Assembly: GCA_963717465.1 (NCBI GenBank)
Contig: OY970340.1
Coordinates: 1,184,001-1,248,000 of the forward strand
Length of the DNA stretch: 64,000 nt
Direction of reading: 5' to 3'
Origin: Candidatus Bathyarchaeota archaeon
Lineage (GTDB): Archaea > Thermoproteota > Bathyarchaeia > Bathyarchaeales > Bathycorpusculaceae
Of this stretch, positions 42,001 to 51,000 are shown in pieces; the stretch's first letter is position 1; each line of letters begins with the position of its first letter. A program made the position numbers.

Positions 42001-45000
42001 CCGGTGCACACCCATTTGTCGAGTTGGTGAATCGCCGCTCTTGTAATGAAATGCTGTGGTCCCGCATTTATCGGCAGATCGCAATCCGCAAAACCAGAAT
42101 TAGGTCTTGCTACCTCAACTACATTGGCAAACGATGGATCATTACCGGTGTCATCTTTACCTGTGAGCAGATAGAGATCAGCGTGTGCGGTACCCGCCAT
42201 TTCCCACAGCCGGATTTTATCCGTATCGTCCTGCCTTGCCTTATAATAACCAAGCAACATGAGATCCGTTTCCGACTCTAATATCAGAACGGGAACATTG
42301 ATGTCAGTGCGGATGAAAACCTGATCCATATCTGAAAAATCAATATTCTCTTTAGAATTGACCTCAGTTGAATTGTTTTCGAATAATGCGAAACCCGATC
42401 GGCCGTGTAAAAGAAATCCATCAAAGACTTGATCACGGAGCTGGATAGCATTGACATAGGAAGTGAGATGCATAGCGGATTGTGATTCGCCTACCGCCAA
42501 TATACGATCGGCATGGCATCCAGCGAGTAGATTGACGCTGCCCGGGCTACGAATGGCTCTGGCAGCTTGTGAATAAATATCATAGCAATATTCATCCCCG
42601 GGATGGGTTAGTGACCCATAACGTTGCGGATCAGCGGTTTTCAGATCCAATTTGACATTGCCTAATGAAATGGATGAGTGGCCTTCAACTCCTCCACATT
42701 GTGCCGACACGCCAATCCAGATATAACCCCGGCGGAGTAATTCGTTGTGCATAAATATCCAATCGGGTGCGTAATCGAGTCCGCCTGAAACGTTGAGCCA
42801 CTCCATTACAACGGTGCCGTTGAATTTGGCAACATCCAAGGGCTGGCAGACTATAATCCTGGTCTTATAGGCAGCAGATCCCATCGGTTCTACTTCCCAG
42901 ATGCCGTTCGCTGGTAATTCATTGACATTACGATATGATATAGCAGTTCCAGAGATGAAATATTCTTTTGTTTCGTATCCAGCGGCTGTTAGGACTTGAT
43001 TCGATGGTGTGCTCATCAAAAAAGGTACGCTGGGACCGGCGATGGGTCCCTCGATAATGGGAATACTGATCACGATGACACCCTCGCTCGTGCGGTTAAC
43101 TGCGGAATAATCTTGCTACCAATCAAATACAAACCCTCTTCAATTGGCATATTCATTTCTCCCCTTTCCTTCAAATTTGATAATAAAAGGTAAGCTCTAA
43201 GCGTATATTAGGTTAACTTTGGACGTAGTTCTTAACTTCAACTCAGTACTTTTGTGGCTAGTTGACTTTTGTTATTTAACAAGCAAATATACCTGCAGGT
43301 GCGTTGGATTCCACGCAACAGTAAATTGAACAGACATGACTTAAACCCCCAGTTAAGTGGAGATTTCACCTGCAAAGCCCCCTTTTTTCTTAAAAGCAAC
43401 CATTCTGACAGCTAGGACGAGCCCTTCGATACCAATTACTTCTACTTCTTTATCTTTTTCTATCCAGCTCTCCTTTGCCACGGCTTGCCAGAATTCACTC
43501 TTGACACGAATTTCCCCCTTCTGTTTTAAATCAGTAATAGCAATTCCTATTGCGCCAACTAGTATTCTGGACCTGCCTTGACATTGGCAAGCATATCCAT
43601 CCTAACTCCTCTGTAAAGACGAAACGCTCGGAAAGTTAATATCACAATACCGAATATGACAACCAAAACCTGAATTAGTAAACTAACCCTGAAAAAACTA
43701 AGACCTAAAACAATGAAAAACAAAATTAAACCCGGAATCAACGTCCAAAGAATAATCAGAAAAACCCACTCCAAAGGCTTGCTTAGATTCCTCCTTTCTT
43801 CGCATGCTAAAACAAAACCGCCATTCTTAAACCTCATTTTTCACGCTACCCGTGTAAACTTGATTTTGATCCACATTGTCCAAAAGATAATCTAGATGAA
43901 GAGTTACTTAAATAGAAAGAAGGTGTAGTTGGAATCAAGTATTACGTGCGCTTTTAATCCCAAACATATAAACCGTCTTTTGCTTATTTTTTGGGGGAGT
44001 TTTATGCTTGCGAAGTAATAAACGAATTTTCAGGGAAAACAAGCGGCAAATACGCTTAAACTAAGCTCGATTTGCAACGCCTTAATTACCAAAAAAAGCC
44101 TAAAAACTGACTATTTCGGGAAAGTTAATTAGTGCTCCGGCCTAGGTCTATACTCGGGTTTTAACTCGGAAAACACGATTTACATCTTTTTGTTAATTTG
44201 AATACTTTAAAGAAGAGGTTATCTCAAAAGAAGTGTTTAACATAATTTTACGTTTCATAAATCCAGTTTGATTAATTATCGCAACTTAAGCGGTTCCAAT
44301 CCCTAAAATATTTAAATCCAAGAGAATAATTGTATTCATGGCTCAAGGCAGGAAAGAAGAACTAAAAAGCGCCGTTTTAGGAAAGAACGTCACAAAATTT
44401 GTTTTTAATCGTCCCAGCGCCAAAATTCTTGAGATATTTCAAAACAGGTACTCAAAACGTGATTATTTCATTAATATTGATATACCCGAGTTTACCAACA
44501 TTTGTCCGTTAACTGGACAACCAGACTTTGCGGTAATTCGCATACGCTACGTTCCCGACGAAAAATGCTTAGAGTCAAAATCGCTGAAAATCTACATTTT
44601 CTCTTATCGCAATTTTCCTGAATTTCATGAAGATTGCATTAACAGAATTTTAGATGATTGTGTAAAGGTATGTGCGCCTAGATGGATGCAAGTATCGGGC
44701 AAGTTTAATGCCAGAGGAGGCATTTCATTCACGCCTGTGGCTGAGTTCACTAAAAAGGGTTTCAAATTGGCTCAGCAGAGCGCAAAATTAGATTTATGAT
44801 GCTCGCAAGAGTTGAGGATGCAAAGATGAAAAAATCTGAATTCGACAAATATCTCCAAGAAAGGTACAATGACCAAGTAAAATGGTATGACACCAAAGCA
44901 ATCCTTTACAAAAGATTGAATTACATATTCCAAATCCCAACAATCTTTGTTGCAGCAATTATTCCAATATTCGCTTTGCTTGAACAAAAATGGGTAACAG

Positions 45001-48000: not shown

Positions 48001-51000
48001 AAATGAAAGATGATTCCTCAATAAAGACACCAAAAGCAATGGAAGAAAATGGTTGCAAGGTGGTCAACTGGAATCACGAAGAGATTAATCAAGCGATGAG
48101 TGAGGCGGATAAAAAGCGCAAAGAACAATAATCTTTGGCAACTAAACATCTAAGGGCTATGTATCTTCTTCTTTGCCCTCGTTTTCTATTCTCTTGTGCT
48201 TCTAAGCCTGGAAACTAAACTGTGCAGACATTGACTATGTGAACTCAACCATCAGCATTACACCAGAAAAACTGGGAATTACACCCCAAGCAAATGGAGA
48301 CGTCTCCCGCAAAACTCCCTTTTTTTGGATCGGTGGGGAATTTGAACGTAGCCGATAGTGGAGATATCACCCGCATATCTCCTTTTTATTTCGGCCTTAA
48401 TTCGAGCTATTCTATTTTGCTTTTTAGATTAAAAAGGTTCAAAAATTTTTAACTACTGTTATAGAGATCAACGGGTCGTTTTGGCTTTCCCTCATAAAGT
48501 CCTTTTTTTGATTTCAAGCCAGACGAGTGGAATTCCTGATAAAAATGAGCCAACAATAAGAAAAACAAAAGTCAAAATAGTGACGTAGTTATTGCTGAGT
48601 TTGAAATATGTCACAATGTCATTGGGGAAGGTGGCTGCTATTCCTATGAGAAGGATTCCAGCGATCATAGATACTATAAGGGAGTAAACTTCAAGTCTCT
48701 TTGACATTAATTTATATGGAAGCTTGATCGAAGGCGTCTCAAAATTCTCATCGGATTCTGTAACAACTATTTCTGAGCTTTCGCTTGTAAGAGTTTCTTT
48801 GGTTTGAAAATCAAAATACTTGGTATATTTGTCCTGAGCCATTGGCAAATCAATCTCTGATGAGCCTACATGGGATATTAATTTATCATCAACGCTAATG
48901 GTAATTTTTTTGTTTGGCTTGTTGTTATGCTTCTGATGATCTGGATTAAAAGCACTCAAAGATACAGCATACGGTCTTCCTTGACTGATTTTAAAAGAAT
49001 GTTCTTCAATGGATAATTGGGACTTGAGCTCCGTTCTGAGAAGAATGTTGGTTCTGAAAAATATCGAATTACTAAATTGTTCTTGCCCTTTCAATCGGGC
49101 AATAGGGTCAGCTCTTGCCAACATTTTGGCTGTCTCTTCCCAAATCTCTTGTTGAGAGTTTGTGCTGTTTTGATTTCCAACTAAAGGGTCGGCGCCTTTT
49201 AACACAAGTTTTTGAAGATATTCATCACTATTTGGAGTGGCTTTTGATAACATTTTTTTTTGACTCAAAATAGTTCGGATATCATCGTTGAATTTCTTAG
49301 TGTCAACCGGATTTACGAAATCTTCCATGCTTAGAATAATCTGATAAGTTACCCCTATCGTAGGTGGTATGATTTCTGAAACTTTGCAACGTCTGATTGG
49401 ATAAAATTCTGCGTTCTGTTTTGAATAATCAAGGAAGATTACGAGACCAGATATATTTTTAGCTTTGTTCAAATTCAATTTAATGTCATCGGATAGCCAT
49501 TTTTCGTCATACTCGACAAATTGAATCAGGCCGTTTGGTAAACTGAGAATCGAAAGAATCTTCTGCCTGAAGTCGGGATAATAGGTTGATTTAAAGAAGA
49601 AAATGATTTCAGGTGTGCTCATTTATCCATTCATCTCTCTTTCAGAGCGGAACCTCACATCTGTATCTTCTTATCTCTGGCTCGCTATAAAAGCTTGGAA
49701 GAACACTTTCATACCACAATTGCGTAACAGTTTTCTGAAATCGCACAAATTTCGGAAACCACTCATCTGGACTTTCGTTATCGTGCCAAGGCAGTTTTCT
49801 TCCTTCTTTAAGGGCAGCGACCATATTTGGCTTCACAGCGGAATACGATTTAATTTGCAGCATGTTTGCCCTCAACGGAAGATTTGTATGAATTTGTTTG
49901 AGCCTACAACAACAAATATTCAATCTTCTTTTTAACTCGTCATTTTCAGCAAAAACCATCGGTATTAAATAGACATATGTGTCTGCCTTAAGTTCATTGA
50001 CCAAGAAATTCAAAACCTCAAATTGTTTTGCGAAGAATTCAGGCTGTGAATTAGTAATCTGAGAAAAATCTTCCGATCCTACTTGTCCGTCTCCAATGCC
50101 TTTCAAGCACCCGACTATCCCAAAATTGTGGTTGCCTATAGTTTCCTTTAGTTCATCCAACACTCTTTCCAAGTAATTGGTTGTTGACAAATTACAATCT
50201 GCCCAAACGTAGACACTGTTTGAAATGTTTCGTTTGTCAAGTTCCCTGTAAACGTCGATTATTAGTTCGGGAACTATAGTTGTTGCTTCTCCCCCACTAA
50301 TCCTAATAACATTCAGTTCCTCAGTGGTTGCCCTAAGTTTTTCGTACTCATCAATAATATCGCTTACTTTGAAGTATCGTCCTCTGCCAGCTTCAGGATT
50401 ATTCAAATCCCTGTCCACATAGCAATAGCTGCAATCATAATCGCAACCGTTGAGTTGGATCGTAAACGTATTGTTGTATTTTCGAGGATCACCACCCATT
50501 TTCTTCGCTGCGCTGTAAGGTGGATTCTGAAACTCTAGTTTTTGAAAACCGCCTTCAAGTCCTAGAAATTTCGGTGACCAGATTTCTGAGGTTGGAACAC
50601 TTGTCCACCATTGTGCATATAAATCTGACGGATCTCTGGGATCTATGTACGTTCTAGTCCGAAAATTTTTTTTAATGTCTTTACTATCCTTTATCTGGAC
50701 TCCTTGAGTAAAATCCGGAACAAAATAGCTGTTCGTAGCTGGGTCTCTCATTTGTTTTCTGCGTTTTGCTGCTATTTCTTCTGGATTTAGCATATTTCTT
50801 GATTGCGCCTTTGGTAGTATTTTAATTCTTCCTATTTAGGTCACATAGATCCTAATCAAGAAGTCAAAAACCATTGGAATTCAATTCAGCCCATTTCACC
50901 AAGTGGATTTGATTCTGGAACAAACGTCTTATTGTTAAATCAATACACTGCTGCCAGTGCCGGAGCTGATTTACTGATGGGTACTGGTGTGTTTGCCCTC

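Follow-up and report, generated by a model that had tools for sequence, protein, structure and literature searches.

The analysed window is a 64,000-nucleotide stretch of the Candidatus Bathyarchaeota archaeon genome (GCA_963717465.1, contig OY970340.1, positions 1,184,001 to 1,248,000), and coordinates below are positions in this window. The genome is a single 3.05-Mb contig with a completeness score of 88%. Six co-directional genes occupy positions 44338 to 48131, in the order QueF, SLATT, TGT-like Cap10, OGG-like Cap11, QueC-like Cap9 and ThsB-type TIR, neighbouring genes overlapping or standing at most 13 nt apart. The features of the region are as follows.

44087..44159, no strand: left copy of a 73-nt imperfect direct repeat, 85% identical to 51888-51960; candidate island boundary
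44305..44317, plus strand: candidate TATA-like A/T-rich box AAAATATTTAAAT, lying some 26 nt ahead of the ATG of QueF, read from the sequence
44338..44799, plus strand: QueF, unimodular NADPH-dependent preQ0 reductase, 153 aa (Pfam QueF 1.3e-32)
44796..45254, plus strand: SLATT two-transmembrane effector, 152 aa (DUF4231 2.5e-18; SLATT_1 1.6e-12; PADLOC 2TM 0.0027)
45265..46254, plus strand: Cap10-like TGT-fold protein, 329 aa, TTG start (PADLOC TGT 3.9e-27)
46251..46991, plus strand: Cap11-like OGG/HhH glycosylase gene, one frame of 246 codons, with a TAG at 46569-46571 (codon 107)
46979..47608, plus strand: Cap9-like QueC-family ligase, 209 aa from ATG 46979 (Pfam QueC 8e-38; PADLOC QueC 4.8e-31)
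47610..48131, plus strand: ThsB-type TIR protein, 173 aa, GTG start, N-terminal tail MGGSPVYSDTGHGG... (ThsB_TIR 1.1e-22; PADLOC ThsB 6.2e-18)
48492..50793, minus strand: cargo, a radical SAM protein (49642-50793; Radical_SAM 5.6e-9) and a 376-aa membrane-anchored protein (48492-49622)
51888..52008, minus strand: tRNA-Glu(CTC) at 51933-52008 and right repeat copy at 51888-51960, from repeat and tRNA searches

The genome-wide survey's note had described these genes as one tight operon with Cap11 in two pieces. The close packing, like the family matches to PADLOC TGT, QueC, ThsB and 2TM and to Pfam SLATT_1 and ThsB_TIR, was reproduced, but the gene count is six, as both Cap11 pieces lie in one frame. 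The A/T-rich box is a candidate archaeal promoter, from which the transcript would be leaderless or nearly so. Pfam and PADLOC profile searches gave no CD-NTase family match in any ORF of the operon or in its two neighbour ORFs, which bears out the absence claimed earlier. For comparison, we used 80 genome loci, fetched by Cap10 relatives and kept, together with metagenome contigs. Nearly all the genome loci have the order Cap10-Cap11-Cap9-TIR; Cap10 was labelled in 79 of them, Cap9 in 77, TIR in 76, Cap11 in 74 and SLATT in 55. In related loci, 81 flanking ORFs were searched and none hit a CD-NTase family; 19 of these ORFs had no Pfam match of any kind. Assignment of the operon to type IV CBASS was rejected on this absence of a CD-NTase from the operon, its neighbours and the flanking ORFs.

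The TIR protein is read from a GTG at 47610, 1 nt past the QueC stop, with a Shine-Dalgarno-like AGGTG 6 nt upstream. Its N-terminus is then MGGSPVYS..., fitting four of the six positions of the tail motif. In the AF2 model, residues 1-22 are disordered, a helix spans 17-29 and the first strand begins at 38, giving a tail of about 37 residues; start site and model together confirm the 37-residue MGGS tail reported before. The best Foldseek matches of the model were a B. cereus TIR (8fz9; 35% identity, TMt 0.76) and ThsB (6lhy). In 43 sequences the glutamate of the WxxWE motif, here E116 in SEWVDWE, does not vary. TIR proteins encoded directly after Cap9 start with M-G-G-(G/S) in 73 of 76 cases (68/71 genome and 5/5 metagenome loci), although Pro5 and Val6 of the present tail are residues seen in none of 73 relatives at these positions. 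The comparison thus supports the proposal that Cap9 and Cap10 act on a TIR protein in place of a cyclase, through the conserved gene order, the shared tail start and the lack of CD-NTases in the flanking ORFs, and the TIR protein is their predicted client here.

The Cap9-like protein probably starts at ATG 46979, which is preceded by GGAGG, and matches the Cap9 structure 9nto (E 1.5e-12). Cap9 proteins (QueC cluster 9) are described as short, with an SGGxDS loop, Y/FxQx5E, RN and a Cx7CxxCxxC zinc site (PMC13082051, in the part consulted). The present protein keeps LVSGGIDS (SGGxDS), YGQLAKDKE (YGQx5E), PGRN and the zinc site CHSGNDTYCGKCISC (CHx6CxxCxxC, four zinc cysteines), while the YxDC motif reads FPDQ, as it does in 84/84 aligned members. 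These core motifs are identical in loci with and without QueF. No other QueC, no PTPS/QueD match and no YhhQ-type importer was found in the host genome, so that it is not evident, at 88% completeness, where the Cap9 substrate would come from.

The Cap10-like protein matches the Cap10 structure 9ntn (E 1.8e-8), with 18-19% identity in the structural alignment. D88, H217 and D239 align with D73, H226 and D248 of 9ntn (base reading, nucleophile D248), and the counterpart of 9ntn D122 is probably the invariant D123. The position of 9ntn S74 is Asn89 here and Asn in all six members of the QueF clade, versus Ser in 77 of 78 others. A CSCEAC...H stretch aligns with the ArcTGT zinc motif, so the TGT zinc site has not been lost; its cysteines are kept in only 9-14 of 84 family members. 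Because of the asparagine at S74 and the retained zinc motif, absent from Rhizobiales Cap10, the pocket may act differently from that of 9ntn. The AF2 model (pLDDT 94.7) gave ArcTGT 1iq8 (TMq 0.77) and 9ntn (TMq 0.69) as best Foldseek matches. Among 36 other genomes of the same genus, one had a Cap10 relative, at 27% identity; among 24 of the same order, none was found. When Cap10 and TIR were folded together on alignments built for this analysis, the score was 0.56 (runs 0.56, 0.53 and 0.56), against 0.01 for the best of three controls; the runs had at least 53% of contacts in common and a partner pLDDT of at least 76. Of 157 solved complexes, 116 reach the mark of this test, as do 2 of 215 mismatched pairs, but at scores up to 0.60 it is reached by just 18 of the solved complexes and by both of the passing mismatches. 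Since a similar complex, Cap10-CdnD (9ntn), has already been solved, the pass may reflect likeness to it, and the test lends weak support to the pairing.

Cap11 had been regarded as split, with weak matches. We found that segments 46251-46571 and 46770-46991 share one frame with a single TAG between them. The separate halves do match weakly (E 0.17 and 0.11), but the frame read through the TAG (246 residues) matches Ogg-HhH at 1e-22 (81 bits, cutoff 27), indicating one nonsense-interrupted gene in place of a split one. Codon 107 is TAT (Tyr) in 7/7 relatives, and the HhH lysine (GIGPKQ) falls between the TAG and the next possible start codon, 46770. Pyrrolysine decoding was considered and rejected: in the host genome PylS reached at most 31 bits (cutoff 178) and PylD 23 bits (cutoff 150), no CUA-anticodon tRNA was present among the 38 tRNAs found by Aragorn, and TAG terminates 178 of 1036 ORFs of at least 300 codons, the distance from there to the next stop being as short as is usual. 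With TAG an ordinary stop, either Cap11 has been lost to a nonsense mutation or the assembly has a wrong base here; the change would be recent, since the frame past the TAG is still open and conserved. Cap11 is naturally missing from five related loci (L006, L016, L017, L053 and L057) and split in L056, and its deletion leaves defence intact in the tested bacterial type IV CBASS system (10.1101/2025.04.06.647259). The public sequencing run that was found (n=1) does not cover the TAG site.

The SLATT protein scores 107 bits with NCBIfam SLATT_1 (cutoff 41); it may start at ATG 44796 or, from the alignment of relatives, at an internal Met at 44826. QueF scores 160 bits with NCBIfam QueF-II (TIGR03139; curated cutoff 86.9) and matches B. 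subtilis QueF (YkvM, PDB 4f8b) over 142 residues (E 2.1e-44). Aligned with 4f8b, it keeps the features of a unimodular QueF: the catalytic Cys of CPxTGQPDF, the NADPH motif ESKSLKxY and the His-Glu of FHEDC. Unlike YkvM, it is the opening gene of a defence operon; its archaeal host belongs to a phylum otherwise without QueF (0 of 400 other genomes sampled), and no second QueF was found in the host genome. The adjacency of QueF and SLATT, earlier reported as rare, indeed occurs in only one of the 80 genome loci kept, but also in four metagenome contigs. The order QueF-SLATT-Cap10... was found in 5/5 informative relatives with Cap10 identities of 61-67% (L004 from a genome; L091, L092, L093 and L095 from metagenomes), a count in which L092 and L093 are nearly identical and from which L094 and L096, whose contigs end upstream, were left out. 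The QueF-carrying operons probably form an archaeal sub-clade that gained QueF as first gene. Of the 80 genome loci, 79 lack QueF; in Methanomassiliicoccales and Methanoperedens hosts the module occurs with no QueF found, and thus QueF is not generally required. Its presence coincides with Cap10 substitutions beside the base-binding and catalytic aspartates, and with hosts in which neither canonical QueC nor QueD was found.

An imperfect repeat of the tRNA-Glu end flanks the 7.8 kb in which the cassette lies, the left copy comprising part of the tRNA-Glu 3' end and 45 nt of its flank. The cassette is probably accessory DNA lodged beside tRNA-Glu. No integrase-size ORF was found between the two repeats. 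The radical SAM and 376-aa cargo genes are outside the conserved operon; their products have no homologs in the related loci, and their nearest atlas clusters are unnamed. A frameshifted MtmB-like gene was also observed about 8 kb from the Cap11 TAG.

Operons of this kind had been reported as already noted for bacteria, which we confirmed: a December 2025 preprint (10.64898/2025.12.03.692087) mentions, as untested, Thoeris operons with cap9, cap10 and cap11, so that, as far as the main text of the preprint goes, the type is already published and the QueF addition is what is new. Both have, besides a TIR and an effector gene, relatives of QueC, TGT and OGG, and both lack a CD-NTase; the present locus has a ThsB-type TIR with its Glu, a SLATT gene in the same operon, adjacent cap9, cap10 and cap11 (the last stop-interrupted) and the MGGS tail. 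The preprint's example, Pseudomonadales bacterium SP163 (our L063), has the order Cap10-Cap11-Cap9-TIR-SLATT, its first four genes ordered as here. In contrast to the preprint's operons, ours has an archaeal host and an added QueF, a short (152 aa) upstream SLATT where theirs is long (about 300 aa) and downstream, a Cap10 with N89, A240, S244 and the zinc motif, and a stop-bearing Cap11. The word "QueF" is absent from the preprint's main text; its supplements might list archaeal or QueF-bearing cases. Type VII Thoeris, as described in the same main text, pairs a ThsB TIR with the SLATT effector ThsH through a canonical cADPR signal; the present operon likewise has a ThsB-type TIR together with a SLATT-domain membrane protein, and type VII is described without Cap9, Cap10 or Cap11. 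Type IV CBASS (10.1101/2025.04.06.647259; 9ntn, 9nto) shares the accessory trio with its catalytic residues, a client enzyme whose flexible tail starts M-G-G-S and, in many cases, a SLATT/2TM effector. It differs in its signal maker, a CD-NTase in place of the TIR enzyme, and in its Cap10 (9ntn), to which ours has the low structural identity given above, with Asn for S74 and a retained zinc site.

We consider it probable that the operon encodes a Thoeris-type abortive-infection system, in which a TIR signal maker and a SLATT effector are joined by a type IV CBASS accessory module that controls the TIR enzyme. By homology to characterised systems, the roles of Cap9, Cap10 and NDG being taken from the type IV CBASS study (10.1101/2025.04.06.647259), the initiator Met of the TIR protein would be removed and Cap9, as an ATP-dependent QueC-like ligase, would attach 7-carboxy-7-deazaguanine to the free amine of Gly2. 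The TGT-like barrel of Cap10 would take the modified tail into its base pocket and hold or prime the TIR enzyme; it may also transfer TIR, via Asp239, onto an unspecified target. Upon infection, the TIR domain (Glu116) would convert NAD+ into a cyclic ADP-ribose-type signal, causing the SLATT protein to breach the membrane. Cap11, the proposed reversing glycosylase, would be inactivated in this genome by the Tyr(TAT)-to-TAG change. QueF, catalytically canonical by its motifs (preQ0 to preQ1), most likely adjusts the free 7-deazaguanine pool of the cell for the system.

The TAG might be no real knockout, full-length Cap11 being made by read-through or the base being an assembly error. It differs from the TAT of all seven relatives at one third position in an otherwise intact frame, and residual errors would be compatible with the completeness score and the frameshifted MtmB-like gene; the missing pyrrolysine machinery and the ordinary use of TAG as a stop argue against read-through, and we hold this explanation to be unlikely, if a serious one. 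Alternatively, the whole cassette could be a decaying remnant whose defence function is lost, as the TAG, the unique Pro5 and Val6 among 73 tails, the lack of an integrase-size ORF between the repeats, the failure to find QueD or canonical QueC in the host and the nearby MtmB-like frameshift might suggest. Yet none of the other five operon genes is disrupted and all their catalytic motifs are kept, the open and conserved frame past the TAG marks a recent change, and Cap11 is dispensable in the tested bacterial system and naturally missing or split in six related loci; decay therefore appears improbable.

QueC, QueF and TGT are also exactly the enzymes needed for making and inserting preQ1, and the TGT-like Cap10 here has retained the catalytic Asp of tRNA TGTs and their CxCxxC...H zinc motif, with a fold as close to ArcTGT as to Cap10, the operon QueC and QueF being the only copies found in the genome. 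They could thus form a nucleic-acid modification pathway placing preQ0 or preQ1 into DNA or RNA (Dpd-like or phage dPreQ1-like), with OGG excising bases and TIR and SLATT a separate, adjacent Thoeris pair. We regard this as highly improbable: Cap10-Cap11-Cap9-TIR remains a block in the genome loci that lack QueF, the Cap9 core motifs do not change with QueF, the glycine-first tail that nearly all the adjacent TIR proteins carry is what Cap9 has been shown to use as substrate in type IV CBASS (10.1101/2025.04.06.647259), and no QueD was found to supply the biosynthetic route.

Within the Thoeris-type reading, a more far-reaching idea, which we think very unlikely to be correct, is that the QueF-clade system reads or edits the 7-deazaguanine pool of the cell and does more than draw on it. 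As these hosts were found without QueD or canonical QueC, 7-carboxy-7-deazaguanine and preQ0 would accumulate chiefly during infection by viruses that themselves encode a pathway for 7-deazaguanine DNA modification. If so, infection would be sensed through the tagging of the TIR tail by Cap9, QueF would convert the preQ0 of the virus to preQ1 and so starve the viral DNA transglycosylase, and the altered residues of the Cap10 pocket (N89, A240, S244) would be an adaptation to this 7-deazaguanine chemistry.

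The genome-wide survey's note had described a tight defence operon here, and the operon proved real, with one correction, which concerns Cap11. Six genes run in one direction over 44338-48131 on the plus strand: QueF, SLATT, Cap10 (TGT-like), Cap11 (OGG-like), Cap9 (QueC-like) and a ThsB-type TIR protein. The junctions are tight:

QueF/SLATT junction: the QueF stop and the first SLATT ATG overlap by 4 nt
SLATT/Cap10 junction: 10-nt gap
Cap10/Cap11 junction: 4-nt overlap
Cap11/Cap9 junction: 13-nt overlap, counted from the ATG at 46979, with GGAGG upstream of that ATG
Cap9/TIR junction: 1 nt from the Cap9 stop to the GTG at 47610, with AGGTG 6 nt upstream of the GTG

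Judging by relatives, the true SLATT start may be a Met located 30 nt downstream of the first ATG. The family-match figures previously given for the operon genes were reproduced on re-search. The reported lack of a CD-NTase was confirmed, as no family match was obtained in any operon ORF or in either of the two neighbours. When known RNAs, including riboswitches, were searched over 43000-52300, a tRNA alone was found.

Cap11 had been reported as split into two ORFs. This description was incorrect: both pieces lie in the same frame and are parted by a single TAG at 46569-46571. Read through, Cap11 has 246 residues and matched Ogg-HhH at 1e-22 (81 bits) and the NCBIfam N-glycosylase/DNA lyase family at 2.9e-25; searched singly, the halves gave E-values of 0.17 and 0.11. 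The codon at this site is TAT (Tyr) in all seven close relatives, and the TAG therefore differs by one third-position base. The Lys of the helix-hairpin-helix (GIGPKQ) falls between the TAG and the next possible start codon, 46770, and it is predicted that neither piece alone could provide an active glycosylase. The TAG is either a real mutation or an assembly error. These are not separable because the sole public DNA run found (7% of sampled words) yielded contigs that span only 45960-46270 and the edges, with 46571 outside; no RNA run containing the operon sequence was among the matches listed. Pyrrolysine at this position was considered and rejected: PylS reached at most 31 bits (cutoff 178) and PylD 23 bits (cutoff 150), no CUA-anticodon tRNA was found by Aragorn, and TAG terminates 178 of 1036 ORFs of at least 300 codons. 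For such ORFs the median distance past TAG to the next stop was 10 codons, similar to that for TAA and TGA. In a bacterial test system, deletion of Cap11 keeps defence but increases toxicity (10.1101/2025.04.06.647259). Cap11 is absent from the related loci L006, L016, L017, L053 and L057, and is split in L056.

We then compared the operon with related loci. A Cap10 protein query returned 299 relatives at E ≤1e-5, 39 of which were aligned, and 80 genome loci were fetched from 196 confirmed stretches, their ORFs being labelled by iterated profiles seeded with the proteins of the window. By these labels, Cap10 was present in 79 of the loci, Cap9 in 77, TIR in 76, Cap11 in 74, SLATT in 55 and QueF in one, and the gene order Cap10-Cap11-Cap9-TIR was near-universal. 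The TIR ORF lies immediately 3' of Cap9 in 71 of the 77 Cap9-bearing loci; among the other six, it is beyond the distance filter in four, missing in one and preceded by an intervening transposase in one. With five metagenome loci included, 73 of the 76 TIR proteins directly after Cap9 start with M-G-G-(G/S), under a pattern in which Met1 and Gly3 are fixed and positions 2 and 4 restricted. Within these 73 tails Gly2 occurs in 72, and G or S is found at position 4 in 63, at position 5 in 67 and at position 6 in 59. The three proteins missing the pattern include one that reads GGGGGG from a GTG start and one truncated ORF. Alignment of 43 TIR sequences revealed M1, G3, D70, W112 and E116 as invariant; E116, the Glu of the SxWVxWE motif, is at what we take to be the position of the catalytic glutamate of TIR NADases. 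CD-NTase families matched none of 81 same-strand flanking ORFs of the related loci, which included 19 PfkB ORFs, several restriction-modification subunits and 19 ORFs without match. The order, the tail and the CD-NTase-free flanks thus indicate that these loci are a version of the type IV CBASS accessory module built around a TIR protein. In type IV CBASS the CD-NTase tail is the site of deazaguanylation (10.1101/2025.04.06.647259); here a tail of the same kind is present on the TIR protein. This locus comparison supports the earlier proposal that the TIR protein is the probable client of Cap9 and Cap10.

The operon kind is already in print: a preprint (10.64898/2025.12.03.692087) describes it briefly, from sequence and an AlphaFold3 model, and the example organism named there corresponds to locus L063 of our set. 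On viral contigs, one distant Cap10 relative was found. The Cap10-Cap11-Cap9-TIR block is often nested among type I restriction-modification genes. It is accompanied by presumed effectors of other kinds, an 8xMP octameric membrane protein in the Methanoperedens locus L008 and MAP3K_TRAF_bd/TPR-S proteins in L011, L015, L058 and L075. In the proteobacterial loci L043-L083, a PfkB-family (ribokinase-like) ORF of 380-435 aa, which accounts for the 19 PfkB matches among the 81 flanking ORFs, directly precedes a Cap10 ORF of 450-500 aa. PfkB appears to be a further gene of nucleoside metabolism that the module has recruited, at the place that QueF holds here.

Residues D88, H217 and D239 of the window Cap10 aligned to D73, H226 and D248 of the solved Cap10 (9ntn, a Cap10-CdnD complex). 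The AF2 model (pLDDT 94.7) was about equally close to the archaeal tRNA enzyme ArcTGT (TMq 0.77) and to Cap10 (0.69). Unlike the Rhizobiales Cap10, which has no zinc motif, the window protein retains CxCxxC...H; the zinc cysteines are kept in just 9-14 of 84 family members. Cap9 keeps all motifs listed for the Cap9 cluster except YxDC, which is replaced by FPDQ in all 84 aligned members. In the TIR model, residues 1-22 are disordered, a helix spans 17-29, and the TIR fold is nearest to the B. cereus TIR 8fz9 and to ThsB. A folding test of Cap10 with the TIR protein gave a score of 0.56 (runs 0.56, 0.53 and 0.56), the best control reaching 0.01. Of 157 solved complexes 116 pass the mark of this test, as do 2 of 215 mismatches; the passes at scores of 0.60 or less, however, comprise only 18 of the 157 solved complexes and both of the passing mismatches. 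The runs had at least 53% of contacts in common, and the pLDDT of the partner was at least 76 (in-house alignments). Since the structure of a like complex is already available, likeness alone may account for the pass, and the test weakly suggests that the two proteins may associate.

The distinctive feature of the window operon is QueF. This protein matched B. subtilis QueF at 2.1e-44, with a QueF-II score exceeding the curated cutoff, and the catalytic Cys, the ESKSLKxY NADPH motif and His-Glu are retained in all six operon-borne QueF copies. The window QueF is thus predicted to be a canonical preQ0 reductase. There is no second QueF in the host genome, and none was found in 400 sampled other genomes of the host's phylum. 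The QueF-SLATT-Cap10 start was present in every informative close relative, that is the Candidatus Sifarchaeum locus L004 (61% Cap10 identity) and four metagenome contigs (65-66%); two of these contigs, L092 and L093, are nearly identical in sequence, and two further metagenome contigs begin within Cap10. Of 400 genomes from the phylum to which the Sifarchaeum locus belongs, 9 had a QueF match, and the same operon was found at that locus only. In L005 (Methanomassiliicoccales, 47%), the nearest relative lacking QueF, the QueF position is taken by a second TIR gene. At L114 (G610:C3:534922-538275), in a large genome of the Sifarchaeum-locus phylum, a QueF of 126 aa immediately precedes a TGT-like gene of 373 aa, which was matched by the Cap10 profile.

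Four Cap10 positions distinguish the six QueF operons from 78 others: N89, adjoining the base-reading Asp (Ser in 77); A240, adjoining the nucleophile Asp239 (Gly in all 78); S244 (Cys in 76); and A157 (Pro in 77). The L005 Cap10 carries the common residue at each of them. The catalytic motifs of Cap9 are the same with and without QueF. Judged by title or abstract, none of the papers matching QueF together with SLATT was relevant; QueF was not named among the matches listed for Thoeris, CBASS or anti-phage literature, nor in the main texts of 10.64898/2025.12.03.692087 and of the QueC-family preprint. The data show QueF to be conserved and under selection in the operon of this sub-clade, with which it was imported.

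The hosts differ in the 7-deazaguanine pathway genes found. In the host genome, Cap9 is the sole strong QueC match, PTPS/QueD gave no match, QueE and a YhhQ-type importer had no match above cutoff (the genome scores 88%), and an ArcTGT-like gene scored 278 bits. Neither QueD nor canonical QueC was found in the Sifarchaeum genome. The Methanomassiliicoccales and Methanoperedens hosts of QueF-less operons contain QueD, and the former also canonical QueC, but QueF nowhere; two bacterial hosts have QueC, QueD and QueF. This contrast calls for caution, as it compares 2 with 2 archaeal genomes, or 2 with 4 when the bacterial hosts are counted, the QueF clade being one lineage and the genomes incomplete (88% for the host). 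A PTPS search of 41 genomes from the host's family found none, while canonical QueC occurs in 9 of the 40 besides the host; an unrecognised substitute for QueD may therefore operate in this family. Two archaeal hosts have the module but no QueF at all, so QueF is no general requirement. Most likely, QueF would shift the free 7-deazaguanine pool (preQ0 to preQ1), which would be relevant to the altered Cap10.

The operon lies between direct repeats next to a tRNA gene:

44087-44159 and 51888-51960: direct repeat, 73 nt, 85% identical
48492-50793, minus strand: radical SAM protein (383 aa) and 376-aa protein, the former 19 nt upstream of the latter
51933-52008, minus strand: tRNA-Glu(CTC), whose last 28 nt plus 45 nt of flank form the right repeat copy

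The 7.8 kb between the repeats contain the operon, a candidate A/T-rich promoter region and the unrelated minus-strand pair, and no integrase-size ORF. The radical SAM protein weakly matched viperin, QueE and NrdG activase models; the 376-aa protein has C-terminal membrane segments and belongs to no known family. Neither has homologs in the related loci, and they were rejected as parts of the system; they may be a separate two-gene defence module. A Cap10 relative occurs in one of 36 other same-genus genomes (L101, G457:C10:312891-316781; 27% identity), in a different order (Cap11-Cap9-Cap10, then a 211-aa ORF), and in none of 24 same-order genomes. Four same-genus genomes show synteny on the tRNA-Glu/thermosome side; the opposite side is not conserved. 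The left flank of the island had no match within 12 kb past the tRNA in these four, so an empty site could not be defined. At the same-genus locus L110 a partial copy of the tRNA there lies at a distance of 3.9 kb. The island fits accessory DNA at a tRNA hotspot.

Elsewhere in the window, an MtmB-like gene (monomethylamine methyltransferase family, 38194-39559), close to a gene for a B12-binding protein (35061-35726), occupies two frames, the shift falling near 38900. PylS and PylD were not found in the genome, and the MtmB-like gene may be a pseudogene or a non-Pyl homolog, or else reflect an assembly indel. Aragorn also gave two candidate tRNA-Sec (TCA), at C1:845695-845779 and 2829638-2829723.

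The TIR version of the module circulates among archaea of several lineages, carried by small accessory islands, and the archaeal sub-clade with QueF, in which the Cap10 pocket co-varies, adds a new element to a known operon kind. For immunity controlled by deazaguanylation, the questions concern the action of Cap10 on its tagged client and the sensing of infection. In the natural variant described here, a canonical preQ0 reductase has been recruited, residues beside both key Cap10 aspartates have changed, and no 7-deazaguanine pathway was found in the hosts. The sub-clade offers a handle on the Cap10 step; it suggests the pool of free deazaguanine as one variable of the system, and supplies concrete mutants and metabolites for testing.
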